From positions 1 through 28,023 of IMG/VR virus record IMGVR_UViG_3300020042_004274: a stretch of 28,023 bases of DNA, one strand, 5' to 3'. Position numbers and translations under genes: made by a program. The stretch is from a virus. Taxonomy: Duplodnaviria; Caudoviricetes. This document shows positions 10,799 to 28,023 of this stretch, piece after piece; within the stretch, counting starts at the first letter, position 1, and the number at the start of each line of letters is the position of its first letter. The notes under the pieces were generated by a model. The model saw nothing but the letters and a program-made list of their open reading frames with translations, searched no databases and was not told the origin of the DNA.

Positions 10799-10975
10799 AT
10801 GAAGATCGTATCTTGGTTAGTAAACCGTTTGAAAGAGCCTAGCACCTATGCAGGCTTCGCTGGTATTGCTTTGGCGTTCGGCTTGTCCGACGCAGAGTGG
10901 GCCACAGTATCCACGGCAGTTGCCGGTCTGGCTGGCGTAGTCGCCATGTTCCTGTCTGAAGCACCCGCCGAATAA
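10799..10975 (+). CDS. Putative holin (58 aa, two hydrophobic segments)
   Basis: ATG at 10799 with AAGGAGA RBS at about 10786-10792. MKIVSWLVNRLKEPSTYAGFAGIALAFG...AVAGLAGVVAMFL. Lies between endolysin and spanins. Confidence 0.6.
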   Translation: MKIVSWLVNRLKEPSTYAGFAGIALAFGLSDAEWATVSTAVAGLAGVVAMFLSEAPAE

Positions 10976-11187
10976 TGAAGTTCCTGATGACCCTGCTGGG
11001 TGTTCTGAACAAAGTGTTGGGACTTTGGAATGAACATCGTTGGAAGCGGCAGGGGCGTCAGGAAACCATTAAGGAAATGAACGATGCCATCAATGAGCAG
11101 ATTGAACTTGGCGCGGCTGCTATCAGCGTCCCTGATCCTGAGCGTGACGAACGGTTGCGCGACCGTTTCGACCGCTCCCGTAAATAG
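10975..11187 (+). CDS. Putative inner-membrane spanin (Rz-like)
   Basis: N-terminal hydrophobic anchor followed by a charged helical region. Overlapped out of frame by a lipoprotein gene. Confidence 0.65.
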   Translation: MKFLMTLLGVLNKVLGLWNEHRWKRQGRQETIKEMNDAINEQIELGAAAISVPDPERDERLRDRFDRSRK

Positions 11188-11317
11188 CTATTGTGCTATT
11201 GCGAAACCCATTAGTTACGATGTAACAAAAGATACATCAGAAACTGTCACAGAAATAGAGGCGCATAACAGCGCCTTTATTTGTATCTGTGAGGCTGATT
11301 GCCCGAAAGGCAAATAA
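11084..11317 (+). CDS. Putative outer-membrane lipoprotein spanin (Rz1-like)
   Basis: Signal peptide with lipobox-like 'LILSVTNG-C', additional Cys residues, and AAGGAA upstream. Overlaps the 3' half of the Rz-like gene. Confidence 0.7.
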   Translation: MPSMSRLNLARLLSASLILSVTNGCATVSTAPVNSYCAIAKPISYDVTKDTSETVTEIEAHNSAFICICEADCPKGK

Positions 11318-12499
11318 ATGCCGCCTACTATAACGATAGACCCAAACCTGTACAACTATTGTACGCCAAGACAGCGTGAGGTGCTTGAGGCTATTGAATT
11401 ACACGGCGGCGCTAAGGCTGCATCAATTGCATTAGGTATCAACCAAGGCGCAGCAAGCGATGCCTACATTGCGGTCAAGAAGAAGGCAGCGTTGCGAGGC
11501 TATGCTCCTGAGAACGATTTCACCCGGCCAGTGCCGCAGGGCTATGTCAGCAAGGGCGTGTCAACCTACTACAACTCCGAAGGCAAGCCGTCAGGCCAGT
11601 GGGTCAAAGCATCGCTGACGCATGAGGCGCTCATAGAAGCCATGCGTGAGACAGTCGCTGGCTTCAAGGATCAGATACAGCCGGCGGACATTATCGTTGC
11701 TCCAGCGGCTTGCGAAGAGCATCTGTGCAATCTGTATACTTTTACCGACTACCATCTCGGTATGCTGGCATGGCATCAGGAAGGCGGGGTGGATTGGTCT
11801 GTGTCCATTGCAGAGAAAACTATCCTTGCGGCGCTGGCGCAGATGATTAACCAAAGCCCGTTAGCGCATACGGCAATTGTCAATATTCAAGGTGACTTCA
11901 TGCACACCGACGGCAAGACACCCGTAACACCGACAGGTAAACACGTCCTAGATGCGGACAGCCGCTTCCCTAAGATACGCCGCGCAGCCATACGGATCAT
12001 CCGCTCACTGGTCGCGCTGTCGTTGCAGCGCCATCAAGAAGTGTATCTGATTATAGCCGAAGGCAATCACGACGTAGAAAGCAGCGGCTGGTTAGCTGAT
12101 CTGTTTGCGGTGCATTACGAAGAAGAGCCCCGCGTCACTGTCAACGATAGCGTCCTGCCGTTCTACGTATTTGAGTGGGGCAATACCATGCTGGGCGTGC
12201 ATCATGGCCACAAAGTCAAGAACGAAAACCTACCTCTGCTGTTTGCCGCGCAGTTCCCGCAAGAGTGGGGTCGCACTACCCGGCGTGAGATACACTGCGG
12301 TCACCGCCATCATCGTGATGAGAAGGAATACAATGGTGTGACAGTTGTGCAACACCCGACACTGGCTGCGCGTGATGCGTATGCCGCTCGTGGAGGATGG
12401 ATTGCAGACCGGGCAGCTTGGGCGATAACGTATCATAAAAAGTATGGCGCTGTAGGGCGCGTAATGGTAACGACTGAGATGCTGGATGCTGTATGTTGA
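11318..12499 (+). CDS. N-terminal HTH plus calcineurin-like metallophosphoesterase
   Basis: Phosphoesterase motifs DYHLG, GDFMH, GNHD, HHGH and GHRHH. HTH-like N-terminus 'TPRQREVLEAIELHGGAKAASIALGIN'. Confidence 0.85.
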   Translation: MPPTITIDPNLYNYCTPRQREVLEAIELHGGAKAASIALGINQGAASDAYIAVKKKAALRGYAPENDFTRPVPQGYVSKGVSTYYNSEGKPSGQWVKASLTHEALIEAMRETVAGFKDQIQPADIIVAPAACEEHLCNLYTFTDYHLGMLAWHQEGGVDWSVSIAEKTILAALAQMINQSPLAHTAIVNIQGDFMHTDGKTPVTPTGKHVLDADSRFPKIRRAAIRIIRSLVALSLQRHQEVYLIIAEGNHDVESSGWLADLFAVHYEEEPRVTVNDSVLPFYVFEWGNTMLGVHHGHKVKNENLPLLFAAQFPQEWGRTTRREIHCGHRHHRDEKEYNGVTVVQHPTLAARDAYAARGGWIADRAAWAITYHKKYGAVGRVMVTTEMLDAVC

Positions 12500-12502
12500 A
12501 TA

Positions 12503-12544
12503 CAGGTTTTTGGTGTGCAAGACGTAAAAAACTGATATAGGGGC
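12503..12544 (+). promoter_or_regulatory. Candidate promoter/imperfect inverted repeat before module B
   Basis: Longest intergenic gap in the window (50 nt), AT-rich. Extended -10-like TGaTATAGG at 12533-12541. Imperfect inverted repeat caggttttt / aaaaaactg. AGGGG SD-like sequence. Confidence 0.3.
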
Positions 12545-12549
12545 ACGTT

Positions 12550-13203
12550 ATGGCCACTGCGATGACATATACCAGTCTTCTCAACGACCTCCGGAATTAT
12601 CTGGAGCGTGGGGCTACGCTGGCTACTGATCCATCAGTTTTTGTGCAGCTACCAAGTCTTATTGGCCTTGCTGAACGTCGTCTGGCGAGAGAGCTTAAAG
12701 TACAAGGGACTGTCAATGTTGTTAATTCTGCAATGACTCAGGGGCAGGCGACATATCCAAAGCCTGATCGCTGGCGTGAAACCGTCAGTATGCGTGTCGG
12801 AACTGGGACTGGTTATAATACTACGCAGGAGATCTTCCCGCGTGCTTACGAATATCTGCGGCAGTATTGGCCAAACCAGACTCTCACTGGGACGCCTAGA
12901 TTTTATGCTGACTATGACTATCAGAATTGGTTCTTTGCGCCAACGCCCTCTGATGATTTTCCTTATGAGATAATTTATTATGAGCTGCCGCCACTTCTTG
13001 GTGATGACGTTCAGACAAACTGGTTCACCGAATACGCGCCTAACGCGCTGCTCTACGCCACACTTATGGAAGCCGCTCCGTTCCTGAAGAACGAAGAGAT
13101 TATTCCAATTTGGCAGGCATTTTATGACCGTGCCGTCGCGGCGCTTAATGGCGAGGATATTCGCCAGATTGCTGATCGCGGCATTATCCGCAGGGAGGAC
13201 TAA
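12550..13203 (+). CDS. Second head-to-tail adaptor (different family from <1-707)
   Basis: 'MTYTSL...L.NYLER...P..I.LAERRLAREL', 'GTPRFYA', 'APTP', 'TNW....PNALLYATL.EA.PFLKN' pattern of podovirus adaptors. Confidence 0.8.
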   Translation: MATAMTYTSLLNDLRNYLERGATLATDPSVFVQLPSLIGLAERRLARELKVQGTVNVVNSAMTQGQATYPKPDRWRETVSMRVGTGTGYNTTQEIFPRAYEYLRQYWPNQTLTGTPRFYADYDYQNWFFAPTPSDDFPYEIIYYELPPLLGDDVQTNWFTEYAPNALLYATLMEAAPFLKNEEIIPIWQAFYDRAVAALNGEDIRQIADRGIIRRED

Positions 13204-13205
13204 TA

Positions 13206-15233
13206 GTGCCGTCGTTCACAAATACTTTTGGTGGCACAGTCGTCTATCCGGCTGATGTAAGCTATCGCGCAGTAGCTCTTTCAGCGAACGTCACACTGAC
13301 GTGGCCTACTGAGCTTGCGACAGACAGCAATGTGGTTGCATCCATCATGGATGTTACGCCTTCTGCTGGCAGTCTCACGATCCGTATGCCTGATGCAACA
13401 CAGGCAAGCGTCGGCCAAACCGCTCTGTTCTTCAACGTCGGCGCGTCTTCATTCACAGTAGCTGATAACAGCGGCAACACGATCCAGACGATTGCCTCCG
13501 GTCAGGCGTGGCAGATCTACCTTACGGGTAATGCGACCGTTAACGGTACATGGCGTCCGATTCAGTATGGTGTCGGCACATCCTCCTCATCTGCAAGCGC
13601 GTTAGCTGGTGCCGGACTCAAGGCAATCACGACGACGCTGAATCAGGCGGCTTCCACGACATTACTATCGGCTAACTATACGCTTACATCCGTTGACCGC
13701 GCTCGTGTAATCGTCTGGAATGGCGGCGCTGGCACGTTCACGATGCCATCTGCTTCTGCGGCGGCGAATGACTGGTTCTTCGACGCACGTAACTCAGGCA
13801 CAGGCGGTCTTACGATCCAGCCTTCTGGGGGTGAACTGATTAACGGACAGGCCAATTTAGTATTTAATCCCGGTGACAGCGCACGCATCATCACTGACGG
13901 GACTAGCTTCTACACGCTTGGCTATGGTCAGAGTTCGACGTTTGCCTTTGACTATGTGTCGATCAGCCTTACGGGTCAGCCGAGTCCTTACACGCTAACT
14001 GGTACAGACCTGAACCGTATTGCTTACCAGTTCAGCGGCGTCCTGACCGCAAACATGCAGATCGTTGTTCCCAACACAATCCAGCAATACTGGATCCGGA
14101 ACAATACAACTGGCAGCTACACACTCACGGTTAAGACAGCGGCTGGCACGGGTGTGATTGTCGTCCAGAGCGGCGCCTCCATCCTGTACTGTGATGGCAC
14201 GAACGTGGTTCAGGCAGAGACTGCGAGCCTCAGCGTCCCTGTGGCCATTGCTCAGGGTGGTACAGGTGCGACGACGGCTGGGGGTGCTCTGGTCAACCTT
14301 GGCGGCACATCGCTCGGTATTGGTATCTTCACGGCAGTCAACGCAGCCACAGCGCGTGCATCGATTGGCGCAGCCGCTTCTGGTGCCAACAGCGACATTA
14401 CCTCACTCTCGGCCCTAACAACACCTTTGAGCGTGCCTCAGGGTGGTACTGGACTTTCGACTGTCCCTGCAAATGGTCGGCTGCTTATTGGTAACGGTAC
14501 TAACTATACACTCACCAACCTGACAGCAGGTACTGGGGTTAGCATCACCAATGGCTCTGGCACGATCACGATTAACAGCACAGGCGTCACTGTATATCCG
14601 GGCGCGGGTATTCCGCTCAGCACGGGAACGTCGTGGGGCACGTCATATGGAACGACGGGTACCGGCGCAAGCGTTGCCCTCGTTGACGGTCCGGGCTTTA
14701 CCGGCATTCCAACGGCACCGACAGCAGCACCCGGCACGAACTCAGTTCAGATCGCGACAACGGCTTTTGTCATCGGTACAGCATTTTCTGCAGCACTTCC
14801 GGGGCAAGCGGGCAACGCTGGTAAATTCATCACCACAGATGGGACGACAGCCTCATGGGCATATGTTCCGGTCACTGGAATAAATGCAACTGGTACACTG
14901 ACAGCGAACACATTCCTGAGTGGTGCTGGAACGTGGTCAGCTATTCCTATTGCTGGGATTAACGCTACTGGCACGCCCAGCGCGAACACATTTTTAAGCG
15001 GCGCGGGCACTTGGTCGGGAATACCGATGTCAGGGCTCTCAGCAACTGGCACGCCAAGCGCCAGCAATTATCTGCGTGGGGATGGGTTTTGGGATGTCAT
15101 CAGTGCGGCAACCATTCTTCCTTCTCAGGCTGGTAATGCAGGTAAATATCTGCGAACTGACGGTACAAACTTGAGTTGGCAGCAAACAGCTGGTATGTCG
15201 ACACCGAAGGCGTATTATTTTTCTAGCTTCTAA
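13206..15233 (+). CDS. Tail fibre protein
   Basis: GTG start, 675 aa. Fibre motifs 'YCDGTNVV', 'V.QGGTG'-type x2, 'GANSDITSL', 'PTAPTAAPGTNSVQIATTAFV' and 'LP.QAGNAGK...TDGT..SW' x2. Confidence 0.85.
   Translation: MPSFTNTFGGTVVYPADVSYRAVALSANVTLTWPTELATDSNVVASIMDVTPSAGSLTIRMPDATQASVGQTALFFNVGASSFTVADNSGNTIQTIASGQAWQIYLTGNATVNGTWRPIQYGVGTSSSSASALAGAGLKAITTTLNQAASTTLLSANYTLTSVDRARVIVWNGGAGTFTMPSASAAANDWFFDARNSGTGGLTIQPSGGELINGQANLVFNPGDSARIITDGTSFYTLGYGQSSTFAFDYVSISLTGQPSPYTLTGTDLNRIAYQFSGVLTANMQIVVPNTIQQYWIRNNTTGSYTLTVKTAAGTGVIVVQSGASILYCDGTNVVQAETASLSVPVAIAQGGTGATTAGGALVNLGGTSLGIGIFTAVNAATARASIGAAASGANSDITSLSALTTPLSVPQGGTGLSTVPANGRLLIGNGTNYTLTNLTAGTGVSITNGSGTITINSTGVTVYPGAGIPLSTGTSWGTSYGTTGTGASVALVDGPGFTGIPTAPTAAPGTNSVQIATTAFVIGTAFSAALPGQAGNAGKFITTDGTTASWAYVPVTGINATGTLTANTFLSGAGTWSAIPIAGINATGTPSANTFLSGAGTWSGIPMSGLSATGTPSASNYLRGDGFWDVISAATILPSQAGNAGKYLRTDGTNLSWQQTAGMSTPKAYYFSSF
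14865..15098 (+). repeat. 3 x 78-nt (26-aa) fibre shaft repeat
   Basis: VPVTGINATGTLTANTFLSGAGTWSA / IPIAGINATGTPSANTFLSGAGTWSG / IPMSGLSATGTPSASNYLRGDGFWDV at 14865, 14943 and 15021. Confidence 0.9.
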
Positions 15234-15247
15234 TAGGGATTGAGTCG

Positions 15248-15562
15248 ATGGCGACTGGCATTTTAGGACAGGCTGCACCGGCAGCAACAACCAATACGGT
15301 GGTTTATACCGTTCCTGCGGCTACGGTTACGGTTGCTACGATCAGTATCGTAAACACGACACTTATTCCCATCGCTGTTCGCTTGGCCATCGCGTCTTCG
15401 GGAACTCCGGCGGCTTCGGAATATATTGAATATGATACCATTATTTCTGCAAGCGGTGTGCTAGAGCGGTCAGGTATTGTAATGAACGCAACTGAAGCTG
15501 TAGTTGTTTTCGCCACTTCTGTTGGGCTGTCTGTCAGCGTATATGGTTACGAGGAGGTTTAA
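15248..15562 (+). CDS. Small beta-rich fibre-associated virion protein
   Basis: 104 aa, 'TVVYTVPA...ISIVN...VRLAI...EYIEYD...GVLERSGIV...SVYGYEE'. Positional counterpart of 3690-4028. Confidence 0.6.
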   Translation: MATGILGQAAPAATTNTVVYTVPAATVTVATISIVNTTLIPIAVRLAIASSGTPAASEYIEYDTIISASGVLERSGIVMNATEAVVVFATSVGLSVSVYGYEEV

Positions 15563-15564
15563 GA

Positions 15565-18411
15565 ATGGGCCGCACACTTTCTGGCGATTCCGCTAATGTT
15601 ATCGCACTTCCCGCGTCTCCAACTGGCTTTACCGCTGGCGACTATGTGTACCAGACCACAGCGGGTTATGGCGCAGTTCCGTCTGGCGCCTTGGCTACAG
15701 GCCTGTTTAATGTTAATAACGTCCCAGTGCCAGCGCGTTCCGCCACGGCGACGACGTCTAACGAATTTACATATGTTGAGCAGCTTGGCGGATCGATGGG
15801 AAGCCAAGTCGCAGCTCAGCTAACCAACGGAAATATTGTATATGTTTACGTAAGTGGCTCAGCAACGGTTGGCTCAGCAGGGGCTGTAAACTTTCGGATT
15901 GAAACCGCCGCTGGAACCGTAGTTGTCGCAGATACTAGCACGACTATGACGGCGTATACTCCATATCAAGCGAGTGTTGTTGCCATAGCAAATGGTACTT
16001 TTGCGATAGTATGCACGCCTTTAACAAGCAGCTTTAGTCTGAGCGCCCGCTTTTATAACAACGATGGCACGGCTGCTACTGCAGTGTTGGCTGCAGGCCT
16101 TAACTTAATCTTGGCCCAAGCGGTTGGTCGTCTTAAACTACAGGTGCTTTCAGATAACTCGGTCATTATCGGGTACACGACTAACGCTGTGTTTGAATTG
16201 CGCCGCGTGACAACGGCTGGTTTTGATGCCACTTTTGGTGCTAGTGGTGTGAGAATCGTTTTTGATATAGGTTCAGCTACCAGTCAATTCTGGGACTACA
16301 TTGTTGATGGCAGTAATAATATCCAAACGATACATCTTGTGAACAGCGGCAGTCTCGTCATGAGACGTTACAACTCCATCGGCGTTCAGCAGGCGACTTC
16401 TACTGTAAGCGGCCTCACTGGCTTGAAAGCTGTTGCTATTGCCATTGCTTCGGATGGAACAATGCGTGGTTTTGCTCAGCAGACGAGCGGTATCAATGTC
16501 GTTACGTGGAATGGAACCACTGCCGCACTGGGTACGCAAATTGTCACGGGAAGCTCATCCATTAACGCAGCTTTAGGCGCATTCGCGCAGGGAGCTTCTG
16601 GTGGTTATGTATTGTTCTACACATCCGTGAGCGCGACGAACACCATACCCCTTAACGTACAGGCGTTCAGCTCCTCTAACGTCGCATTGGCATCCGCCGC
16701 GACAATTACTGAGGCGCAGGCAATAGGTTACCGAACGCAGTTTACTCCGATTGTTGTGTCGGGAGATACCCGCGTTTATTTCGGTCTGTTTCAGGCAAGT
16801 ATTAATTTGATTACCACTGGATCTACCAGATCCCCTATGGGTATTATGTATTTTGCCTATAGCAACACGACATACGAGATCCTTAACTCGCCAACTATTA
16901 ACTATAATTTCACTGGATTGGGTCCAATTGCGCTGGGTAACTACAATAGAAACGGATCAACTCCCGGAATTGCGAAGTTTACAGTCGTATCAACAGGAAC
17001 TTACTCATCTACATTTGCCGCCGGGGCTGAAATCATATCAAAGACATTTGTCGATGGTACAAACACCGCGACACAGCTTGTTCTTGCGCCACTTCCAAAT
17101 GGAGAGTTTGTTGCTGCGTGGCAAAGAACCAACGGGGCAGCCTTCCCGACGTTTATTTCTAAATATAGTTCATCCGGCGTGTTACTGGCCGGCCCTGTAA
17201 CGGTGCAAGCAACCGGAATTTTACTTGGTGCTCTTTCAGTCGGTGTAGCAAGATTTGCCAATGGGAATATTCTTGTAACATATTCCGATACCATCACAGC
17301 GATTCGTTTTCGTATTTACACGTCATCTCTTACCTTAGTCACATCAGGAGATGTAGATACTGCCGCAACGGTTAGTAGCAATAATGGTAGTATTGCTGTT
17401 TCCACCTTTGGCGCAGAAACTCATGCTGCCATTGTTTACTCAGATACTACTGGGTACATAACGACAAGAACGATAAGTGACGCAGGAGTTGTTTCTGGTA
17501 TTATTTTTCAAGAGACTAGCGCCACCCGATGGTACAACTTGTCTGTTGTCGGCTTTAAGTCAAGTGCATTCTTTGCGGGTGGTACATCGACAACTGGAGT
17601 TAGACGCGGCTGTGTTATCCGGCAGACAGCGGCTTCCACATTTTCGGCTGGCAGCGCTTTTGATTTTAATGGTGTTGACACCTATTCCTCCTCTGGGCGT
17701 CTATCTTCTCCTATGCCAGCGGTCGGTACTTCGGCATACATGATAGGTAACTCGAGCGGAAATCTTACGTTTACAAACATTAATCCGGGAGCTAATTCTA
17801 CAAGCCAGCTCCAATATAATACTCTTCCCACGCCATTCAGCGGTAGTTTCACCGCCAACGGAACGTACTCTGCTACTACTACGTATACTGGCACAGGTAC
17901 GCCGGTAGTTGTATCACAGCGCAACAATACAACAACAGCTCTGACGCTTGCGCCAATTGCCAACAGTACGCTTGAAAATAATACCAGTGTGACGGTGTCT
18001 TCTGTAACTACTACGTTGCTGACAAATCAGACCGGCCAAAATATTTGTATATCCGCAATCCCACACATCGGGGAGGCTGTTCTTGTCGGCTATACTGACA
18101 ACAACCAATATCCAGCGTTCGTCTCTTTGGCAGCCTCCGCTTTCACTATTAGCTTTACACTGACCGCAGGCACGGATATTTCAACGAGTACGCTTGTGCT
18201 TACGCCAGAGGGTGGCTATTCTCTGCAGGGTATTTCAATAACTGCTGCGGCCTCCGGCAATAGTGGCTTTGTGCAAACAACGGGCACTGCAACTTTAAAC
18301 TCGAACTATTCTGCGGCGACACCTGCAACCTTATTTGACTCCCGCAATCCAATTACCTCTGGGACTAATGGTACGGTCGTTGGTCGCACTGTGACTATGG
18401 GGAACAACTGA
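15565..18411 (+). CDS. Large putative receptor-binding/appendage protein with beta-propeller-like repeats
   Basis: 948 aa, Ser/Thr/Gly-rich. Repeated blade-like motifs (LTNGNIVYVY, IANGTFAIV, LSDNSVIIGY, LPNGEFVAAW, FANGNILVTY). GAGGAGG upstream. Confidence 0.55.
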   Translation: MGRTLSGDSANVIALPASPTGFTAGDYVYQTTAGYGAVPSGALATGLFNVNNVPVPARSATATTSNEFTYVEQLGGSMGSQVAAQLTNGNIVYVYVSGSATVGSAGAVNFRIETAAGTVVVADTSTTMTAYTPYQASVVAIANGTFAIVCTPLTSSFSLSARFYNNDGTAATAVLAAGLNLILAQAVGRLKLQVLSDNSVIIGYTTNAVFELRRVTTAGFDATFGASGVRIVFDIGSATSQFWDYIVDGSNNIQTIHLVNSGSLVMRRYNSIGVQQATSTVSGLTGLKAVAIAIASDGTMRGFAQQTSGINVVTWNGTTAALGTQIVTGSSSINAALGAFAQGASGGYVLFYTSVSATNTIPLNVQAFSSSNVALASAATITEAQAIGYRTQFTPIVVSGDTRVYFGLFQASINLITTGSTRSPMGIMYFAYSNTTYEILNSPTINYNFTGLGPIALGNYNRNGSTPGIAKFTVVSTGTYSSTFAAGAEIISKTFVDGTNTATQLVLAPLPNGEFVAAWQRTNGAAFPTFISKYSSSGVLLAGPVTVQATGILLGALSVGVARFANGNILVTYSDTITAIRFRIYTSSLTLVTSGDVDTAATVSSNNGSIAVSTFGAETHAAIVYSDTTGYITTRTISDAGVVSGIIFQETSATRWYNLSVVGFKSSAFFAGGTSTTGVRRGCVIRQTAASTFSAGSAFDFNGVDTYSSSGRLSSPMPAVGTSAYMIGNSSGNLTFTNINPGANSTSQLQYNTLPTPFSGSFTANGTYSATTTYTGTGTPVVVSQRNNTTTALTLAPIANSTLENNTSVTVSSVTTTLLTNQTGQNICISAIPHIGEAVLVGYTDNNQYPAFVSLAASAFTISFTLTAGTDISTSTLVLTPEGGYSLQGISITAAASGNSGFVQTTGTATLNSNYSAATPATLFDSRNPITSGTNGTVVGRTVTMGNN

Positions 18412-19196
18412 TGACTATTCCTACTCCTACTGTATCACTTGCAGCTAATCTCGGCACGGGCGTTTTTGGCAATGGGCTGGTCCAAGTGTTTGGCGCATCT
18501 GGCACATTCACCGTTCCATTTGGTATTAGCCGTGTTCGTGTGCGCGTCTGGGGCGCAGGGGGTATTTCTGCGCAAGCCACCAGTACGTCTGGATCGGGTG
18601 GCGGTGGCTTTGCTATGAAGGTTGTTGACGTCAGTTCAGGACCGACTGTGGCCGTCACCGTTGGGACGGCATCCGTTGGCGCTAATGGCGGAACGTCTTC
18701 ATTTGGATCTTTTGTTTCAGCCACGGGCGGCGTGGGGGCAGCGGCTGCTGCAACCACTGTCAGCGCGGGAGGCACAGGGGTTGGTGGAGACATTAACTTT
18801 ACCGGCGGTAGCGGCAACATTCCCGATTCCACCACTAATGGCGGCTCAGGCGGGGTTGCTGGCGTATTTGGAAATGGCGGAACTGGAAACACGGGGACTA
18901 CTACTATTATTACTACCCGTAACGGTAATTCTGGAGGCGGAGGCGTGTCGGCCACCGCTGTTTCCGTAGGATTGGGACTTTTTGGCTTACCAACGTCATT
19001 GGTGCCTAGCACATCTCTTGACTCTATCGGAACAGGTGCTGGAAGTGTAACTCTAAACACTTCAGCCACCAATGGTGGTGGTGGGCCGGGCGGGGTAACC
19101 CCTACCGGAGGCGGCGGGTTTCCCGGTGGCGGATCATCTTCCACGGTCGCCAACTTGGCCCTTAACAGCTACGGCCTCGTAATAGTGGAGTATTAA
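18411..19196 (+). CDS. Glycine-rich domain tail protein
   Basis: 'VFGASGTFTVP.G...VRVRVWGAGG', 'GGTSSFG', 'ATGG.G' and C-terminal 'GLVIVEY', the signature of phage glycine-rich fibre-tip domains. Confidence 0.8.
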   Translation: MTIPTPTVSLAANLGTGVFGNGLVQVFGASGTFTVPFGISRVRVRVWGAGGISAQATSTSGSGGGGFAMKVVDVSSGPTVAVTVGTASVGANGGTSSFGSFVSATGGVGAAAAATTVSAGGTGVGGDINFTGGSGNIPDSTTNGGSGGVAGVFGNGGTGNTGTTTIITTRNGNSGGGGVSATAVSVGLGLFGLPTSLVPSTSLDSIGTGAGSVTLNTSATNGGGGPGGVTPTGGGGFPGGGSSSTVANLALNSYGLVIVEY

Positions 19197-19198
19197 TC

Positions 19199-19426
19199 AT
19201 GAAAATGGCTCGTATTACCGGTGGGATTGTTGGTGACGTTATCGTCCCTGTTGATGGCTTCAGGATTGAAGAATGCTTTCACCCTGATGTTCTGGCGCAG
19301 TATGTCGCTGTCGATGGCGACGTTCAGCCCGGCTGGATTGTGACTGAGGACGGCATTGTCGCGCCTGAACCAGAGGCCCCCGCTGAGGAGGCGCCGGCTG
19401 AAGAGGCTCCTGCAGCGGTCATCTAA
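19199..19426 (+). CDS. Small partner of the Gly-rich protein (fibre assembly-like)
   Basis: 75 aa, 'MARI.GG.V.DVI...V.PGW....G...P' with an acidic EAPAE-repeat tail. GGAG RBS. Confidence 0.55.
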   Translation: MKMARITGGIVGDVIVPVDGFRIEECFHPDVLAQYVAVDGDVQPGWIVTEDGIVAPEPEAPAEEAPAEEAPAAVI

Positions 19427-21033
19427 TGACCCTAGTACCCGTCAACATCAATTCACAGCCCGGTATCAAGCGGGATGGTACGAGGTTCGAGGGGAACTTT
19501 TACGTTGACGGACAGTGGGTTCGGTTTCAGCGCGGGCTTCCACGCAAGATCGGCGGGTATCGGCAGATCACGAACTTCGTCGAAGGCACTGTCAATCAGT
19601 TTCACCTGCAGTCACTGAACAACTTTACCTATACCCATATGGGCTATGGTGAGGGCCTACAGCGCATGACGATTGATGAAACGGGCAGCACCAGCTCTCT
19701 GGTTTCACGCGCACCTACGACGTACACAGGCGGCCCAGAATTCATGTGGCAGTTCGATGCGCTATTCGACGGCGCTGGCAGCTCAACTGTGTTGATCGCG
19801 CACGCTACAGATGCTGCAACCGATATTTCAACCGGCACAGACTTTCCCGCCTATATCGGCGACATCTATACTACGACGCCCCTAACGCAAATTCCAACGG
19901 CTGGTGTGAGCGGTGGCATTGTGGTGCTTCACCCGTACCTGTTTATGTTTTCCCAGAACGGTTTCGTGAAGTGGTCGGATGCAAACGATCCCACGAACTT
20001 TACTACCGGCGATGCTGGCGATGCGTTTATTTCATCCTCAAAGATCGTCAAGGGTTTACCGCTGCGTGGTGGTGGTCAGAACCCTGCTGGCCTCCTGTGG
20101 ACGCTCGATAGCCTGATCCGCACATACTACACAGGTGGTACGGATGTTTTCGCGTTCGACACAATTAGTTCGTCCTCGTCGATCATCGCGGTCAATGGCG
20201 TTATTGAGTATGATGGGATCTATTTCTGGGTCGGTGATGGCCGGTTCATGATGTACAATGGTGTGGTTCGCGAAGTACCGAACAACATGAACATTAATTA
20301 CTTCTTTGATGGGCTGAACCAGACATACGCGAATAAGATCTTCGCCTATAAGGTTCCGCGCTTTGGCGAGATCTGGTGGTGCTATCCGCGTGGCGATGCG
20401 ACTGAATGCACGCACGCTGTGATCTATAACTTCCGCGAGCAGACATGGTACGACACGGAGCTGCCGAATATTGGGCGCTCTGCTGGTATCTATGCTGGTT
20501 CGCTTAACCGCCCGATTCTTGCTGACATCAACCCAATTAGTCCCGGCGTTCCTGACATCCGCATTACAGAAGGCGGTGATACGCGGGTTACTGAAAGCGA
20601 AGCTATCCGCGTGGTTAACAATGGTCCGGATCTATACCGCATCTGGCAGCATGAATTTGGCGTTGATGAGATCGATGGCTCTGCGCTCAACGCAATCGAA
20701 AGCTATTTCGAGACGGGCGATATATCGTTGCTCACTGATAATAACCCGCGCAGTCGCTCAATCCACGTTGAGATGATTGAGCCTGACTTCGTGCAGCAGG
20801 GCGACATGACGGCCCAGATCACAGGCAGAATCAATGCTCGTGCGCCTGAAGTCTATGGCCCACTGCGCACCTTCCCGGCTGTGGCAAACGAGAAGTATGA
20901 GCAGCAGGTGTTCTTTAAGGAGCAACGGCGTGAGCTTCGCTTCAGGTTCAGCTCGAACACGGTAGGCGGCGACTATCAGATGGGCCAGATCATTGTCCAC
21001 ATCGAAGCGGCTGATGGTAGGTATCAGAGCTAA
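19426..21033 (+). CDS. Second tail nozzle/DNA stabilization protein (beta-propeller, distant gp10/gp12-type)
   Basis: 535 aa, 'PGIKRDGT', 'WVRFQRGLPRKIGGY', 'VKWSD', 'EIWWCYP', 'VIYN...TWY' and 'IEPDFVQ'. Lies just before the ejection genes. Confidence 0.75.
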   Translation: MTLVPVNINSQPGIKRDGTRFEGNFYVDGQWVRFQRGLPRKIGGYRQITNFVEGTVNQFHLQSLNNFTYTHMGYGEGLQRMTIDETGSTSSLVSRAPTTYTGGPEFMWQFDALFDGAGSSTVLIAHATDAATDISTGTDFPAYIGDIYTTTPLTQIPTAGVSGGIVVLHPYLFMFSQNGFVKWSDANDPTNFTTGDAGDAFISSSKIVKGLPLRGGGQNPAGLLWTLDSLIRTYYTGGTDVFAFDTISSSSSIIAVNGVIEYDGIYFWVGDGRFMMYNGVVREVPNNMNINYFFDGLNQTYANKIFAYKVPRFGEIWWCYPRGDATECTHAVIYNFREQTWYDTELPNIGRSAGIYAGSLNRPILADINPISPGVPDIRITEGGDTRVTESEAIRVVNNGPDLYRIWQHEFGVDEIDGSALNAIESYFETGDISLLTDNNPRSRSIHVEMIEPDFVQQGDMTAQITGRINARAPEVYGPLRTFPAVANEKYEQQVFFKEQRRELRFRFSSNTVGGDYQMGQIIVHIEAADGRYQS

Positions 21034-21290
21034 TGGCGAACGTCTTTACCACCACGATTGACCCGCGCATTGTAGACAATGTTGTGGACTGGGCGGACTA
21101 TATGTTCCCGTCTATTGAAGATTTTGGCGTTCCTTCTCGTCTTATGGATGAAAGCGATTGGAAAAACTGGGCATCTGGGTTATCATCGATTGCGTCACTC
21201 GCATCTCTTGGCATTCCAGACGCATATCAGTTTGACGATTGGCACGAATGGGCAATGCGTTTTAATGAAGTGATTAGTCAGGGATCTTAG
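21033..21290 (+). CDS. Small Trp/Asp-rich conserved phage protein
   Basis: 85 aa, 'DWKNWA...PDAYQFDDWHEWA'. TAATG coupling to the nozzle. Confidence 0.6.
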   Translation: MANVFTTTIDPRIVDNVVDWADYMFPSIEDFGVPSRLMDESDWKNWASGLSSIASLASLGIPDAYQFDDWHEWAMRFNEVISQGS

Positions 21291-21292
21291 GC

Positions 21293-23533
21293 ATGTTTGA
21301 AGATTATTACTTTGATGATCCCGCCTTACAGGATGCTCTGGCTGCTGCTGGGTATTATGCCGAACCAGCACGCAGCGCGGCTGTAATGCCTTCGACCGTA
21401 CAGGCGGCTGAGCCCATTATGGGTATTGGATCTCCTGCTCTTGCAGCGCCCTACGATATAAGCAGCTTGGTTGGCTTGAACCTAAGTGGTCTAGGCGGTT
21501 TTGGCGGCGGTCGGATGGGTGGCGTAATTCAAGACCCAAATATACAGTACATCGGCGCGCCGGTATCTAACAAAGGTAACCCCACGGGAAAGATGGGCGG
21601 CAATGTTTTTGCAATGACGCCTGATCAACCGGTGCGCCTTGTTGATCTTAACACTAAAACAGTTGTGTTTGAGGGCACGGGCTACGACGCCGCACGCGAG
21701 GCGACCCGACTGGGCCAGAGCATAACCGATGCAAAGGGCCGCAAGGCATCATACGATATTCAAACCGCAGACCCGTCGGGTAAGTACACGACCGTTGCTA
21801 ACGAGAAGAGGAACAAGAGTACACTCGGTACGATTGCCGAGATCGCAGGAACCGTAGCTCCGATTGCTGCTTCGTTTATCATTCCCGGTTTAGGTCTTAC
21901 GACTCTTGGTTCCATTGGAGCAAGCGCTGGCGTTGGTGGCCTAAGCGCTGCACTCAAGGGCGATAATATCCTTAAAGGCGCGGCTCTGGGTGGCTTGTCT
22001 GCTGCTGGCGGCGAATATCTTGGCGGTCCTTTAAGTAAGATTGGGGCCTCGAACATTGGCCTTAGAGCGGGTACTGCAATAGGCACTGGCCTCGGCTCTA
22101 CGGCAGGCGGTTTGGTTACAGGGCAGAGCTTAAAGAACTCGCTCCTTGGTGGTGTTGCTTCAGGTGCAATGAGCTACCTGTCCCCAGACATAGCTAGAGA
22201 ATTGGGAGTTGGCGGTGGATCAAGTAGCAGCAGTGGTGGTGGGCCAAACGCAGAAATTGTAGTCAACGCTAGGCCCTTCACGACTCAAAACGTAAAACTT
22301 GGCGGCTTTAAGACACCTGCAGAAAAGTATTTGACCGAAGCTGCCGCAGGAAACACAGTCGATCCCGCAACAGGCCTCCCCTATGCGGGCGATTATTCTG
22401 GCGATCTCATCAACGTAACAGGCCAGCGCCTCAGCCCCGGCGCGGTTACTGGCGGCTTAAACTTGGGTGACGTATCGCCTGAAATACTTGCTGGGATAGC
22501 TGAATTTGCAAAGAATCCTATTGTCGCTGAAGCTAACAGGCTTGAGCAATCTACTGGTAACGTAAACGTATCGCCTGAAATACTTGCTGGGATAGCTGAA
22601 TTTGCAAAGAATCCTATTGTCGCTGAAGCCAGTAAGCTCGAGCAGCCTACTCAGGGCTTTAATCTATCACCTGAAGTACTTGCTGGAATAGCGGAGTTCG
22701 CAAAGAACCCCATCATAGCTGAAGGTTCTAAGATCGAGCGGCCTACTGCTGCAGTTCCGGTTACGGGTGCTCTCGATACCGATATTGTAGTTAATGCACT
22801 TGGTAAAGAAGCAGGTTTGCCTGAGGGTTCCGTTGTCGCCGGTCTGCCTATAATGGGTCTACCAAAGATGGATCCAAACCTTACAGAAAAAACCACGCTA
22901 GAAAAAATTAAAGACGCGGCTAATCTAGCTAACGCTGTATCCGTCCTTGTCCCACTCGCCGGAGGTGTTCTTGGCGGTGGTGGTGGTGGCGGAGGCATAG
23001 GTTCCAGAGACACTACTGGCTTAAAATTTAGGGAAGGCTCTCTAAGATCCACAATTGGCGAGGGTTATCCCTATACGCCACAAACATATGGCCGGCGCGG
23101 TGGAGATCAAGAGACAGAGTATATGTTCTTCACCCGCGATCCTGTGACCGGAGCGCCTGTGGCAGAACCATCTGCAGCCATCAATCCGGCGGACATCCCC
23201 GTCAAAAAAGAAGGCGGCGAAATCGACGATGATATGGTAAAGCATCTCGTTGATTATCATAAGAACGGCGGTCATCGCGGCCCCGGACAGGTAAAAGGCA
23301 TCGGCAGCGGGCAGGAAGATAAGATCCCTGCATACCTATCTGATGGTGAATATGTCTGGAGCGCGCAGGATGTTTCCGATCTTGGCGATGGATCGAATCG
23401 TGAAGGCGTGCGCCGTCTTGATGAAATGCGGAAAATGGTACGCCGACAGGCTGGCCGTAAAGATGTAAAAAAGATTGCAAAACCCCAGAAGGGTATAGAT
23501 AGAATGCTTAAAGCTGTTGGAGGTATGGCGTAA
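21293..23533 (+). CDS. Putative ejection/internal virion protein with glycine-zipper region, TonB-box-like repeats and C-terminal 'G.G.GQED.IPA.LSDGEYV' domain
   Basis: 746 aa. GxxxG-rich hydrophobic segment, internal repeats, and C-terminal 'VKGIGSGQEDKIPAYLSDGEYVW.A.DVS.LGDGS...G...L..MR'. Confidence 0.65.
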   Translation: MFEDYYFDDPALQDALAAAGYYAEPARSAAVMPSTVQAAEPIMGIGSPALAAPYDISSLVGLNLSGLGGFGGGRMGGVIQDPNIQYIGAPVSNKGNPTGKMGGNVFAMTPDQPVRLVDLNTKTVVFEGTGYDAAREATRLGQSITDAKGRKASYDIQTADPSGKYTTVANEKRNKSTLGTIAEIAGTVAPIAASFIIPGLGLTTLGSIGASAGVGGLSAALKGDNILKGAALGGLSAAGGEYLGGPLSKIGASNIGLRAGTAIGTGLGSTAGGLVTGQSLKNSLLGGVASGAMSYLSPDIARELGVGGGSSSSSGGGPNAEIVVNARPFTTQNVKLGGFKTPAEKYLTEAAAGNTVDPATGLPYAGDYSGDLINVTGQRLSPGAVTGGLNLGDVSPEILAGIAEFAKNPIVAEANRLEQSTGNVNVSPEILAGIAEFAKNPIVAEASKLEQPTQGFNLSPEVLAGIAEFAKNPIIAEGSKIERPTAAVPVTGALDTDIVVNALGKEAGLPEGSVVAGLPIMGLPKMDPNLTEKTTLEKIKDAANLANAVSVLVPLAGGVLGGGGGGGGIGSRDTTGLKFREGSLRSTIGEGYPYTPQTYGRRGGDQETEYMFFTRDPVTGAPVAEPSAAINPADIPVKKEGGEIDDDMVKHLVDYHKNGGHRGPGQVKGIGSGQEDKIPAYLSDGEYVWSAQDVSDLGDGSNREGVRRLDEMRKMVRRQAGRKDVKKIAKPQKGIDRMLKAVGGMA
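22470..22745 (+). repeat. 3 x 96-nt (32-aa) tandem repeat
   Basis: The 64 nt at 22470-22533 are identical to 22566-22629. A diverged third copy starts at 22662. Encodes SPEILAGIAEFAKNPIVAEA..LEQ. Confidence 0.95.
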
Positions 23534-24474
23534 TGGCTATCACAGAAACCGTCACACAAACCAAGCTACCCCAGTGGCTGGTTGATGCCTACACCAAGAG
23601 CATCGAAAGAGGCTATGAGGCTACGACTACGCCTTATCAGCCCTATACTGGTGGCCCCCGCCTCGCTGCTGTTTCTCCGCAGGAGCAGCAAGCCTATCAG
23701 ATGACATCTGAGAATGTTGGGAACTATCAGCCATACACGCAGGCTGCTGGTGACTACATTGCAGGCGGCACCCAATCATTCACTGATCCGGGCGTCGCAT
23801 CTAGTTATATGAACCCATACACCCAGAACGTCGTCTCTGGTATTGGTGAAGCAGCTGGTCGGAACCTGTACGAGAATCTATTGCCTGCTGTTAATCGCAC
23901 ATTCACTGGTGGTGGTACGTTTGGTGGTAGCCGGAGCGCTGAGTTTACAGCCCGCGCTGTTCGCGATGCAAATTCTGCAGCTCTTTCGGCACAGAATGAG
24001 GCTCTCCAAAAGGGTTATGAGAGCGGCATGGGTCAGTTCAACACTGAGGCTGGTCGTTACCTCACGGCAGCTGAGCGGGCACAGAGCCTTGGTCGTGACG
24101 TTCAGAACTTAGCCGGTGTGGATACTGCCGCGCTTGAGGCTGCTGGCTCAGCACAGCGTGGGTTCGAGCAGGAATCGCTTAATTTAGCGAAATCTGATTT
24201 TGATGCCCAGCGTGATTATGATTACAATCAAGCTCTACGCTTTCAGAATTTTGTTGGCACACCAAGCGCACAGGGTGCCGGTACTCGTTACGAGCAGGCT
24301 CCCGGCGTAAGTAATACGGCGTCAACAATCGGCGCTGTTGCAAGCGGCATTGGCGCGCTGTCGAACTTGTTCGGTGGGCCCAAGAAGATCAAGGGTGGCG
24401 GTCCTGTTGGCGCCGATGGCAAGCGTAACATCAAGCACCCGATGCACGGACTTGGATGGTTGAAGGGCAAATAA
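23533..24474 (+). CDS. Putative ejection/pilot protein
   Basis: 313 aa, Ala/Gln/Gly-rich, with 'PYQPYTG', 'YMNPYTQNVV' and 'GTFGGSR' motifs typical of podovirus internal proteins. Confidence 0.7.
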   Translation: MAITETVTQTKLPQWLVDAYTKSIERGYEATTTPYQPYTGGPRLAAVSPQEQQAYQMTSENVGNYQPYTQAAGDYIAGGTQSFTDPGVASSYMNPYTQNVVSGIGEAAGRNLYENLLPAVNRTFTGGGTFGGSRSAEFTARAVRDANSAALSAQNEALQKGYESGMGQFNTEAGRYLTAAERAQSLGRDVQNLAGVDTAALEAAGSAQRGFEQESLNLAKSDFDAQRDYDYNQALRFQNFVGTPSAQGAGTRYEQAPGVSNTASTIGAVASGIGALSNLFGGPKKIKGGGPVGADGKRNIKHPMHGLGWLKGK

Positions 24475-24475
24475 G

Positions 24476-26281
24476 ATGGCGATGACAATCCAGCAAGCGC
24501 AATTAGCTGCGATGCAGCTGCGGGCTAAACGGCCTGAGCTGCAGAACATGGCTGTTGGTGATCTGGTCGCTCAAATTATGGCGTCTGAAGGGGAGGGGCA
24601 GCCGGGTGCTGGTGGTGGCGGCCTTGCTAATCTGTTCGCAACTCCGCTGAGCCCAGCTTCTCCAGCGCCTATGGAGGCTGCACGGCTTGTGGCACCGAAG
24701 CCGACGGCTCAGATGTTTCCGGCTGCGAATGCAAGCAAAGCTCCTAATCCACTTTCTTGGATGGGTGCGAATCCGTCTTCTGGATATGGTGCCAAGCGCC
24801 CAACAGGATCTCATCAAGGGATAGATTATCCCGTTCCTAAAGGTACGCCTATTGGCACCCCTGCTCCGGGTGTGGTGGAAGTTGCAAAGAGCGATCCCAT
24901 TAACGGCAACTATGTAGTTGTACGCCACCCCAATGGTCAATCAACGTCTTACAGTCATCTCGATGGGATTGGTGTTGAGCCGGGGCAGTCTGTTAATGCG
25001 GGTGATGTTCTAGGTACTTCGGGTAATACCGGGCGAGTGCGTGGTAAGAACGGTGGCTACCATCTCCATCTTGGCGCTCGTGATGAAAAGAATAACCGGA
25101 TTGATCCTAGACGAATCCTCAAGGATCCATCTGTACTTGGCGTTGCTAGGGAGGGCACGGATCCTGTGCGTACAGCTGCGGTCGCTGCAGCTGCTCCTCA
25201 GGCAGTAGCCGTAGCTGCTCCTACGGGTGAGACAATGGCTGCGCCAAAGGGCGAACCATCTCGCTTTAGGCCCATGTTTGAGCAGAAGCAGGCTGAACTT
25301 CAGCAGCTGAAGGCGTCTATACCAGCTGGCAAAGAGCCTTCTGCCGAACAGGCATCTCAGTTAAGAACACTATCTGGAGTAGTTTCTCAACTGAAGGGAT
25401 TGGTCGCAGCTGAAGAGGGCGCGGTTGTCAATGCTGAGCGTGCGGCTCTATTGGAGCGGCAGAAATCCCGCCTTGGCCGCGAAGAAGAGTTGATCGAACG
25501 GACGCGCAAACTTGCTCCCGGTAATGCTCTTATTGCGTTTGGCAATGCGCTTGCAGGCGCTAAGCCCGGTGAGAAATTTGCTTCTGCCTTAGCTCGTGGC
25601 TTACAGGCTGGTTCTGAAAGCTACACAGGCGCTCGTGATGCGCGTGAAGCATCTCTCCGTGGCATTGAAGAGAAGCGTGATGCGTTTACCCTGCAGAAAA
25701 TTGACGCGCTCCAGAAAGCTCGCGATGAAGCAATTCGCTTAGCTGATTCTGGAGTTCAGATGACTAGAGATCAGCTTACTCTAGCGGGCCTAGAGGATGC
25801 AGATATTGTTAATTTAGCCACTCAAGAAGATAGAATCAGCGAAGTTGCATCAAGGGCCTCTGAAGCCAAGACTAAGGCTGATAGGGCTGGTGAATCAATT
25901 GACGCAGATATTGATGAGACGAAGGCTAGGGCCGCATATTACAGAATGGGCGGTCGTAGCGCTGACGATGGCGATAAGCCTATGACGCAGAATCAGGTCC
26001 AGACAAAAATTGGTGATCTTAGTAAAGAACGGCGCGCGTTAATGATTAAACTTAACACTGCTACAACGGTGGGCAAGGAAAGGGCTGCCGTTAATTTAGC
26101 GATAAAATATATAGATATTGAGATTGAAAAGTTGATGGGAGGTCGGCCTGCTGCTCCGGCTAAGGCTGCTCCGTCTGGAGGTAATCCTCCGGTTCCAAAC
26201 GCAAAATGGTCGCCTACTCAAAAAGGATGGTTTATTCCAGATCCCAAAAGACAGGGTAAGTATCTGCAAGTTTTTAACTAA
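24476..26281 (+). CDS. Ejection protein with peptidase M23 domain and coiled-coil C-terminus
   Basis: M23 motifs HQGID (HxxxD), GNYVVVRH, YSHL, GNTG, HLH and IDP at about 24770-25110. Confidence 0.88.
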   Translation: MAMTIQQAQLAAMQLRAKRPELQNMAVGDLVAQIMASEGEGQPGAGGGGLANLFATPLSPASPAPMEAARLVAPKPTAQMFPAANASKAPNPLSWMGANPSSGYGAKRPTGSHQGIDYPVPKGTPIGTPAPGVVEVAKSDPINGNYVVVRHPNGQSTSYSHLDGIGVEPGQSVNAGDVLGTSGNTGRVRGKNGGYHLHLGARDEKNNRIDPRRILKDPSVLGVAREGTDPVRTAAVAAAAPQAVAVAAPTGETMAAPKGEPSRFRPMFEQKQAELQQLKASIPAGKEPSAEQASQLRTLSGVVSQLKGLVAAEEGAVVNAERAALLERQKSRLGREEELIERTRKLAPGNALIAFGNALAGAKPGEKFASALARGLQAGSESYTGARDAREASLRGIEEKRDAFTLQKIDALQKARDEAIRLADSGVQMTRDQLTLAGLEDADIVNLATQEDRISEVASRASEAKTKADRAGESIDADIDETKARAAYYRMGGRSADDGDKPMTQNQVQTKIGDLSKERRALMIKLNTATTVGKERAAVNLAIKYIDIEIEKLMGGRPAAPAKAAPSGGNPPVPNAKWSPTQKGWFIPDPKRQGKYLQVFN

Positions 26282-26291
26282 AGGGTGAGCA

Positions 26292-28023
26292 ATGCCCACT
26301 TATAAGCCAGTTGACTTTGATCCGTTCGCTCCGGCAGCGCCTTCTGGCGGGGTCAAGCTGAAGCCTGTTGACTTTGATCCGTTTGCAAAGCGCGACCCTG
26401 CGGCTGATAGGGACATCGAGGAAACAAAGAAGCGCATAGCCCGTGCAAAGGCCCTGATTGCTGATTATGATAAACGGCTTTCTGATCCCAGTAAAGTTGC
26501 GGGCGGGGAGATGGTTATTGGTCTTGCGTCTGCGCGGAAGTCTGCAGCAGATAGCATTGTCACCTATGAAAAGCGGCTTAGAGAAATAGAGCGTACTGGT
26601 AAGCCTGCGCCTAATGAAAGCATAATTCAGTCTATTTCTAATCTTCCCACTGATGCTTTGCGCGGTCTTACACAATTTGCAGGCACAGCAGCTGAAGGAG
26701 CTCTTGGCTTCTTAGGCTCTGGCATGCAATATCTTGGCGCACCATTTGGCAAAGACTTGGGGCTAGAGGGTGCTGGTAAAGAAGTTTCGCAACGCGGCAA
26801 AAACACAAAAGATTATTCTAATAAAATTGTTAGAGAAAATTTTGAACGTAGCGCAGCCGCTAACTTTAGCCCCGTTACGGGCCTTATTGCTAGTACTGGT
26901 GAAGGCATTGGTAGTACAGCACCCTTTCTTCTCACAGGTGGTCTTGGTGGGGTTGCTACTAGATTATCTGCTGCAGGCCGCGCCGCTAATTTAGCGGGTG
27001 AGCTATCCAATGCCCAGAAGATTGCTAGTGCTGCAAACTACGGAATAGCTTTTGGCGGAGGATCGGGGCAAGCTGGAGAGCGGGCGCAAGAGTTCCGCGA
27101 TAAAGGTGGAACCGTATCACAGGGGCAAGAGTTTTTTGTTCGTACTGGTGGCGGAGTTCTTGGTCTTACTCAAGTCGGTGTAATAGACCGTATGCTTGAA
27201 GGGCTGCCGCCTTCTGCGCGAACTGCAGCTATCGATAGCGCAGCTAAATTTGTTGAACGCGCAACCCTTGGTCGCGTTGCTCCTCAGGCAATGTTTGAGG
27301 GCGTAAAGAAAACTATTGCAGATGTTGAAAAACTTGCCCTTGGACGAGTCCTTCTGAGCGGTATAGATGAATCTGCGCAAGAGGGTGGTGAACAGTTTGG
27401 TCAGAATGTCTTAGCCAAGACTGTATATAATCCCGACCAAGCTCTCTCTGAAGGCGTGGCAGAGAACGCATTGCTTGGTGGTATTGTTGGCGGTGTTCTT
27501 AAAGGTGGCGTCGAAGGCACGCGCAAAGTCTTTGGCTCTACAGATAATGCCACAACTCCTCCATCATCCTCACGCCCCTCACGACCGTCTGCTCCACCGC
27601 CTGCACCGCCTGCAGATATGGAAGCTCTTGCGCGGTCACTTGGCCCAGTCGGTGGTAAGATCACTCTGCAAGAACCAACCGGGCCACGGGAATACACGTT
27701 CGAGGGTATCGACGAAGACGGCGGTGTTGTCCTTGCAGATGCTGATGGCGTAATCTACTCTGAAGATCCCAGTCAGGTTCAAGCTGCAATCAAGGCCGGC
27801 GTTGTTGAGCCAGAAAGCGGCTTGGGCGGTATGGTGTTTGGCGATGATATTACTGAGGGTCTACCTGATGTGGTTGCGCCACCGCCGCCTCCGCCGCCTC
27901 CTGCTGCAGACTACGTGCCATCACCTCCGAAGCCGAAGTTTACCATCGAGGACGTACCCACCGAAGTCTTACCTATCGACGAAGATGTCGCCTCCTACAT
28001 GCAGGAATATGCGGCCACTCGCA
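26292..28023 (+). CDS. Large ejection/internal virion protein (3' truncated; absent from the supplied ORF track)
   Basis: ATG at 26292 starts MPTYKPVDFDPFAPAAPSGGVKLKPVDFDPFAKRD. The same frame reads IDESAQEGGEQFGQNVLAKTVYNPDQALSEGVAENALLGGIVGG at about 27363 and appears open to the window end. Pro-rich linkers. Confidence 0.8.
   Translation, partial: MPTYKPVDFDPFAPAAPSGGVKLKPVDFDPFAKRDPAADRDIEETKKRIARAKALIADYDKRLSDPSKVAGGEMVIGLASARKSAADSIVTYEKRLREIERTGKPAPNESIIQSISNLPTDALRGLTQFAGTAAEGALGFLGSGMQYLGAPFGKDLGLEGAGKEVSQRGKNTKDYSNKIVRENFERSAAANFSPVTGLIASTGEGIGSTAPFLLTGGLGGVATRLSAAGRAANLAGELSNAQKIASAANYGIAFGGGSGQAGERAQEFRDKGGTVSQGQEFFVRTGGGVLGLTQVGVIDRMLEGLPPSARTAAIDSAAKFVERATLGRVAPQAMFEGVKKTIADVEKLALGRVLLSGIDESAQEGGEQFGQNVLAKTVYNPDQALSEGVAENALLGGIVGGVLKGGVEGTRKVFGSTDNATTPPSSSRPSRPSAPPPAPPADMEALARSLGPVGGKITLQEPTGPREYTFEGIDEDGGVVLADADGVIYSEDPSQVQAAIKAGVVEPESGLGGMVFGDDITEGLPDVVAPPPPPPPPAADYVPSPPKPKFTIEDVPTEVLPIDEDVASYMQEYAATR

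Follow-up and report, generated by a model that had tools for sequence, protein, structure and literature searches.

TonB-box-like motifs in a putative ejection protein of a freshwater podovirus lineage

What drives the ejection proteins of podoviruses across the bacterial envelope, and which energy they use, is an open question. It is touched by one gene of the IMG/VR virus record IMGVR_UViG_3300020042_004274, a 28-kb linear virus record of freshwater origin (the window: the whole stretch of 28,023 nucleotides (nt) analysed here). The gene encodes a putative ejection protein of 746 amino acids (aa), in which a sequence-only reading had listed six motifs resembling the TonB box. Host TonB-ExbBD, it had suggested, might use them to pull the protein, and perhaps the DNA, through the envelope. 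Are these motifs a genuine feature of the protein and its relatives, and if so, what might they do?

21293..23533, + strand: putative ejection (internal virion) protein, 746 aa, carrying the motifs; ortholog of gp66c of Caulobacter phage RW (C-terminal match 41%, N-terminal domain HHalign 97.6%, gene order as in RW)

A homolog search returned 571 proteins from 8000 scored candidates, 120 of which were listed. From an exhaustive search, 150 representatives were listed at 50% identity, and the 116 with at least 500 aa were kept for the motif tests. Real boxes were taken from N-termini upstream of transporter Plug domains and gave two host profiles. Five alphaproteobacterial genomes supplied the 125 boxes of the first, which was built with low pseudocounts (consensus [ILV]-E-[ET]-[VI]-V-V-T-[AG]). 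None of 251 sampled alphaproteobacteria provided a usable sphingomonad genome; for the second profile, 70 boxes were drawn from the 217 Plug matches that five named Sphingomonadales plasmids contain (consensus [GAD]-[DE]-I-V-V-T-[AG]). In leave-one-out scoring on the Sphingomonadales profile, these 70 boxes have a median of 19.4 bits and a 5th percentile of 11.3. The sphingomonad type is a true TonB box, since the EEIVVTGSR of one transporter lines up with DTLVVTANR of BtuB and ETMVVTA of Cir among PDB sequences, and since the IIVT box of Sphingobium DdvT is required, its V42A+T43A double mutant having lost uptake and function (PMC6874591).

On the Sphingomonadales profile the 116 homologs hold 251 sites of at least 10 bits, compared to 6.5 in shuffled central regions; because the homologs are related, all significance levels at family level are inflated and P-values overstate independence, yet the proteins are <50% identical and their linkers are otherwise not conserved. 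Nearly all sites (246/251) lie at 30-80% of protein length, with at least one site in 96 and at least two in 69 of the 116 proteins. Identity to a real box over six residues was found at 74 sites in 52 of the homologs, where 0.31 were expected. Gibbs sampling of the central 30-75% of the same proteins, run without host input, recovered DEIVVTG in four of eight runs and a shifted IVVTG form in two more. Indeed, the linkers hardly align, yet words such as DEIVVTG, GDIVVTA and EQIVVTG recur in them. A regular-expression count over the 120 listed homologs gave 302 against 38.75 with a pattern drawn up after the homologs had been seen, and we therefore prefer the host-trained tests. Among open reading frames (ORFs) of at least 150 aa at 128 related loci, the family carries 2.01 sites per 1000 aa, compared to 0.07 in the adaptor, 0.22 in the fibre, 0.47 in a 948-aa tail protein and 0.06 in other ORFs; no site was found there in the stabilisation, neighbouring ejection, M23 and large proteins. 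Both the likeness to TonB boxes and the enrichment in homologs were thus borne out, and they are confined to one family among its neighbours. The enrichment is far beyond chance and the family-wide feature is real. Copy number per protein ranges from 0 to 7 and varies by tandem expansion, and the spacing between sites has a median of 48 aa (quartiles 33-70, n=159; 10th-90th percentile 28-113 aa). Elsewhere, a different large protein of an ejection block (L011:12487, a 1011-aa ORF) has one perfect box-like word, EEIVVTAT, at 21 bits, so boxes may occur in other ejected proteins.

The motifs of the window itself are as follows.

22250..22273, + strand: motif 1, AEIVVNAR, aa 320-327, the best match (15.3 bits), its position kept just after the glycine zipper
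22403..22426, + strand: motif 2, DLINVTGQ, aa 371-378, a moderate match (7.8 bits on the Sphingomonadales profile, 14.6 bits on that of G060, whose boxes look Caulobacter-like and whose lineage is unverified)
22470..22757, + strand: a tandem repeat of three 96-nt (32-aa) units, in each of which a short helix, SPEILAGIAEFAKNP, precedes a degenerate PIV/IAE motif (at 22517, 22613 and 22709); nt identity to copy 1 is 85% and 70%
22748..22771, + strand: an extra weak match, AAVPVTGA, aa 486-493 (7.4 bits), absent from the sequence-only reading
22778..22801, + strand: motif 6, TDIVVNAL, aa 496-503, a good match (12.3 bits)

All six motifs first listed are in place, at spacings of 51, 37, 32, 32 and 24 aa, but a count of six is too high. 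The three PIV/IAE copies, rightly called weaker matches from the start, score -4.1, 1.7 and 1.0 bits on the Sphingomonadales profile. As all of them sit in one tandem repeat (3 x 96 nt) they are not independent and make up a single motif. In relatives this slot, ahead of K[IL]E[RQ]P, is occupied by QIVVTGN, EIVATAP, EIVATGN, PIVVEGS or PIISEGS, so the copies would be drifted descendants of a box slot. The first 20 aa of the repeat unit are nearly constant, yet nine codons differ synonymously from those of copy 3, and the unit with its helix is therefore probably still under selection. The amphipathic helix of the repeat is conserved at the protein level across the copies, and relatives have one to three of them. 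The window has two good motifs, one moderate motif and three degenerate copies; motifs 1, 6 and 2 are probably the working set, and the PIV/IAE copies may bind TonB weakly or not at all.

Motifs 1 and 6 fall inside the low tail of real sphingomonad boxes, 10 and 5 of the 70 scoring lower, respectively, and in 18 of 29 close homologs a site of at least 10 bits is found near the slot of motif 1. Within aa 305-510, a test region that was picked, like the Sphingomonadales host set, after the motifs had been seen, there are four sites of at least 6 bits (shuffle mean 0.13; none of 10,000 shuffles reached four) and two of at least 10 bits (P 0.0006). The other 23 ORFs of the window, 8300 aa in all, have five sites of at least 6 bits, one of them at 12.0 bits.

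A sphingomonad is the presumed host of the window phage. Assignment through contigs of metagenome-assembled genomes was set aside, the matches being in bins of many phyla and looking like stray phage contigs. Host flavour can be read from the residue three places before the core, for which the boxes of a named plasmid of Caulobacter sp. FWC26 were used in place of G060. Of the 70 sphingomonad boxes, 10 have V, I or L there, as do 16 of the 226 family sites. By contrast, these residues stand there in most boxes from four of the five other alphaproteobacterial genomes and in all six FWC26 boxes. In gp66 of phage RW, whose host is Caulobacter, V stands there in all three regular-expression sites (VDEIVVTP, VDPVVVNP and VSPVTVSP), and six other late proteins of RW have no site. 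Box flavour changes with the one known host, RW being the single host-anchored case. RW gp66c (proposed genus Riverwalkvirus) resembles the window protein in its N-terminal domain, zipper, C-terminal domain, gene order and three box-like linker sites, and differs in its length of 580 aa and in motifs of the form V-D/S-E/P-core with Pro at the A/G place. It is uncharacterised, labelled hypothetical in GenBank (the copy in phage GB2A is labelled tape measure), and the available text of PMC11053796 mentions no receptor. Since this cultured relative, which grows on Caulobacter vibrioides CB15, carries the motif, the idea can be tested directly.

What might such boxes do? Binding of the box to TonB occurs by beta-strand addition (PMC11658791), and one pull covers about 20 nm, or 50 residues, before TonB lets go (PMC5413942); how chains far longer than one pull are imported is stated to be unexplained (PMC12927319). 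Our preferred reading is that the boxes of the ejected protein bind periplasmic TonB and that TonB-ExbBD pulls the protein across the envelope in steps. After tail docking the 746-aa protein would be ejected and its hydrophobic helices would engage a membrane, leaving the linker between the hydrophobic segments at aa 184-202 and 542-560 exposed in the periplasm. There the boxes would add as a beta-strand to TonB's C-terminal domain; TonB could then pull successive boxes and so thread or extend the protein, if force is indeed transferred in this way. The DNA would follow through a conduit built by the ejected proteins; the idea that TonB might pull the DNA directly is without support, because DNA carries no box. 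TonB binding of some kind is, overall, probable. The stepwise pull is put forward tentatively, at a little under an even chance. A bolder form would have a widespread freshwater podovirus lineage carry host-matched boxes at about one motor stroke apart, as a serial ratchet that hauls the genome-delivery conduit across the periplasm and whose flavour helps to set, and predict, host range; we regard this as possible and somewhat improbable. The 48-aa median spacing is compatible with one box per stroke and is no proof of it.

A number of observations weigh against the stepwise pull. No site of at least 10 bits is present in 20 of the 116 homologs, nor is the motif in the distant homologs L043-L047 and L049, which have the zipper and the LSDGEYV domain with another N terminus, so not every member of the family needs the boxes. 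On the 125-box profile no window site exceeds 6 bits, the best two reaching 5.8 and 3.9 and the others falling below zero; the fit of the window thus depends on an assumed sphingomonad host that has no independent support, with the host set chosen afterwards. The 12.0-bit site outside the protein lies in a beta-rich tail protein of the window. At the place where T stands in 65 of 70 real boxes and N in one, motifs 1 and 6 carry N, and T43A alone cut uptake by DdvT (PMC6874591). The PIV/IAE copies have A-E where real boxes have V (67) or I (3) followed by T (65/70), so that the conserved pair corresponding to V42 and T43 of DdvT is missing from all three. In RW each of the three sites has Pro at the A/G place, as no sampled transporter box does. 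Linker length and copy number could by themselves explain a spacing near 50 aa. For bacteriocins a single box close to the N terminus is enough (PMC12927319), and an internal array is thus not required for import; such an array must, moreover, first get to the periplasm unaided. Lastly, the virion location of the 746-aa protein is deduced from gene order.

The same boxes could instead bind TonB as a multivalent tether. TonB would then be a receptor in the inner membrane that sets the position of the ejectosome, brings the membranes closer to each other or starts the next step of ejection. The sequence evidence is the same as for the stepwise pull, a copy number of 0-7 and uneven spacing (28-113 aa) suit avidity, and motif 1 has a fixed place directly behind the hydrophobic zipper; the use of TolA by g3p of filamentous phages offers a parallel. 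However, it is an energised motor that reads the boxes, so a bound protein would be pulled anyway, and the median spacing fits the length of a pull; we consider a tether unlikely. In a further reading of low probability, TonB is not involved and the motifs serve packaging or conduit assembly, as short beta-strands docking on some partner from the phage itself, be it the N-terminal domain, the portal, the nozzle or a neighbouring ejection protein. Their resemblance to boxes would then, just as improbably, arise because both are acidic-flanked strands made for beta-addition. Strands of the IVV type are generic, TonB-box activity rests more on local structure than on side chains (PMC11658791), the window copies deviate at key positions and fit the non-sphingomonad profile poorly, and the helix and PIxAE of the repeat are conserved at the amino-acid level. 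But 52 of the 116 homologs contain words letter-identical to real boxes, the flavour of RW follows its host, distant homologs with the same zipper and C-terminal domain do without the motif, and the N-terminal domain shows no likeness to TonB_C (HHalign 0.2%).

Could the protein, injected or made later, rather be a decoy that soaks up TonB and so blocks nutrient transporters, competing TonB-dependent phages or bacteriocins? A free Ton-box pentapeptide does block TonB in vivo (PMC5413942), and more copies would sequester more of it. However, few copies enter per virion, and the gene is in the late structural block and not among the early genes, making a decoy quite improbable. Superinfection exclusion, in addition, usually works through small membrane proteins. 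Finally, chance matches in a low-complexity linker, multiplied by tandem duplication, do account for the six counted in this protein, of which three stem from one non-matching triplication, but at family level this reading is largely refuted and hardly credible, given 251 against 6.5 sites and 74 against 0.31 exact words over composition-matched shuffles in proteins <50% identical with otherwise unalignable linkers.

The architecture of the 746-aa protein was examined in an AlphaFold2 model made from a 50-sequence alignment, with confidence given as the predicted local distance difference test (pLDDT).

21533..21817, + strand: folded N-terminal alpha/beta domain, aa 81-175, family-specific (pLDDT 93-98 in the full model)
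21821..22201, + strand: glycine-zipper-like hydrophobic helices, aa 177-303, a candidate membrane-inserting segment (helices in the model, pLDDT about 50-70; many invariant Gly)
23210..23533, + strand: conserved C-terminal GPG..IPAxLSDGEYV domain (phrog_6090 E 2.7e-5 at aa 664-699; invariant columns), common to the box-free distant homologs L043-L047 and L049

As had been proposed, the motif array follows a glycine-zipper segment: glycine-rich helices precede a region of pLDDT mostly <50, in which aa 307-510 have almost no strands, although low confidence may also mean a poor alignment. Hydropathy peaks at 1.78 at aa 184. The N-terminal domain modelled alone has a mean pLDDT of 89.7. Its Foldseek search against PDB gave no match at E<=0.001, and at the same threshold it matched three uncultured Caudovirales proteins and one 580-aa protein in BFVD. 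Fold searches with the full model and this domain found no clear solved match, Atlas look-alikes staying below threshold; a weak, sub-threshold likeness of the domain to type IX secretion C-terminal and Ig-like domains was also seen. The 746-aa protein has no Pfam match, and none is common to 50 homologs either; it has no match among PDB sequences and neither a sequence nor a fold match to a solved ejection protein. Its sole PHROG match is the 36 aa of phrog_6090 inside the LSDGEYV domain. This C-terminal domain comes in two subtypes, IPA[WY]LSDGEYVWSAQDV and IPAVLSDGEYVIDAETV, and both are found on near-identical N-terminal halves, which suggests domain swapping. In a tree of the domain (71 rows, 91 columns) a long branch parts the subtypes; being poorly resolved, the tree was not used for origin counts. 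Actinobacterial genomes contain a related short motif.

The neighbouring genes bear on the role of the protein.

12550..13203, + strand: SU10-type tail adaptor (Pfam PF24175 E 1.2e-26)
19426..21033, + strand: tail stabilisation/tubeB-like protein, upstream marker of the ejection gene block (phrog_3287 E 7e-35; 47.6% to Caulobacter phage RW, about 25% to LUZ24/phiEco32-type phages)
23533..24474, + strand: neighbouring DNA ejection protein, without box-like motif (phrog_4287 E 7.4e-11; no match in 27 homologs)
24476..26281, + strand: putative ejected M23 peptidase, for peptidoglycan cutting (Pfam PF01551 E 1.4e-23)
26292..28022, + strand: large putative ejection protein, truncated by the window end (weak phrog_2206 and phrog_10089 matches)

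The genes run from the SU10-type adaptor through fibres, the stabilisation/tubeB-like gene, the 746-aa protein, the phrog_4287 ejection protein and the M23 peptidase to the large ORF, and tubeB followed by ejectosome candidates is a hallmark of such podoviruses (PMC10386132). The 746-aa protein thus lies in the block after the tubeB/stabilisation gene and beside ejection genes. From this block, and from synteny with RW, which with GB2A, RLK and KcrB makes up the closest cultured phages, we infer that the protein is packaged in the virion and ejected. The window holds two virion modules, one P22-like (head closure phrog_578, ejection phrog_598, SLT) to the left of about 10.2 kb and one SU10/RW-like on the other side (modules 1-10230 and 10212-28023). 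With relatives of the right module, colinearity holds only from about 10433. Four public runs show a more than tenfold jump in contig depth at about 10.2 kb and loose ends at 10212. The window is therefore likely a chimera of assembly, or else a rare recombinant, with the junction in a lysis cassette common to both parts. The left module also has an Asp/Asn beta-hydroxylase-like gene and a GNAT acetyltransferase (4028-5025) among tail and ejection genes.

If the stepwise pull is true, TonB boxes built into a phage protein would supply both an energy source and a host factor for ejection, and hijacking of the Ton motor would extend from bacteriocins to the virions of tailed phages. It would also bear on a puzzle raised in PMC12927319, the import of chains much longer than the motor's stroke of about 50 residues. 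Box flavour, in turn, may predict the hosts of abundant uncultured freshwater phages. To this the window adds the split between real and degenerate copies, a test of box flavour, sphingomonad against Caulobacter, that draws on a cultured phage, and a spacing statistic.

How, then, does the protein compare with known systems? Its family shares with TonB-dependent transporters, whose boxes precede the Plug domain (PF07715), the core (DEIVVTG against [GAD][DE]IVVT[AG]), an acidic disordered upstream context and exact 6-mers, but the phage copies are several and internal, and those of the window are N-for-T or degenerate. No PF07715 match was found in the genome, and the Pfam search gave the 746-aa protein neither Plug nor 22-strand barrel. 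The ejection proteins of podoviruses (T7 gp14-16, P22 gp7/16/20 and SU10/phiEco32/LUZ24-type) are matched in the block after the tubeB/stabilisation gene, the ejection-PHROG neighbour, the peptidoglycan hydrolase and the hydrophobic Gly-rich helices, the difference being that searches by sequence and fold matched the 746-aa protein to no solved member; in the available text of a review on such proteins (PMC8954989), neither TonB nor proton motive occurs. Phages T1 and phi80 use TonB and the proton motive force for infection, but there TonB acts on the box of the FhuA receptor (PMC11658791), whereas here the boxes would be those of the phage protein. Group B colicins, pyocin S2, klebicin C and pesticin are foreign proteins that have their own box in a disordered region and are pulled into the periplasm by TonB-ExbBD (PMC12927319, PMC3390615). 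These bacteriocins have a single box close to the N terminus and get in via a host transporter or TolC, whereas the phage protein has an internal array, would exit through the tail and has no toxin domain. A single N-terminal box, receptor-binding and cytotoxic domains and an immunity gene were not found for the 746-aa protein. In the literature covered, which included few subscription papers and no supplements, there is no report of a phage virion protein with its own TonB boxes. The type of box and Ton-driven protein import are already known.

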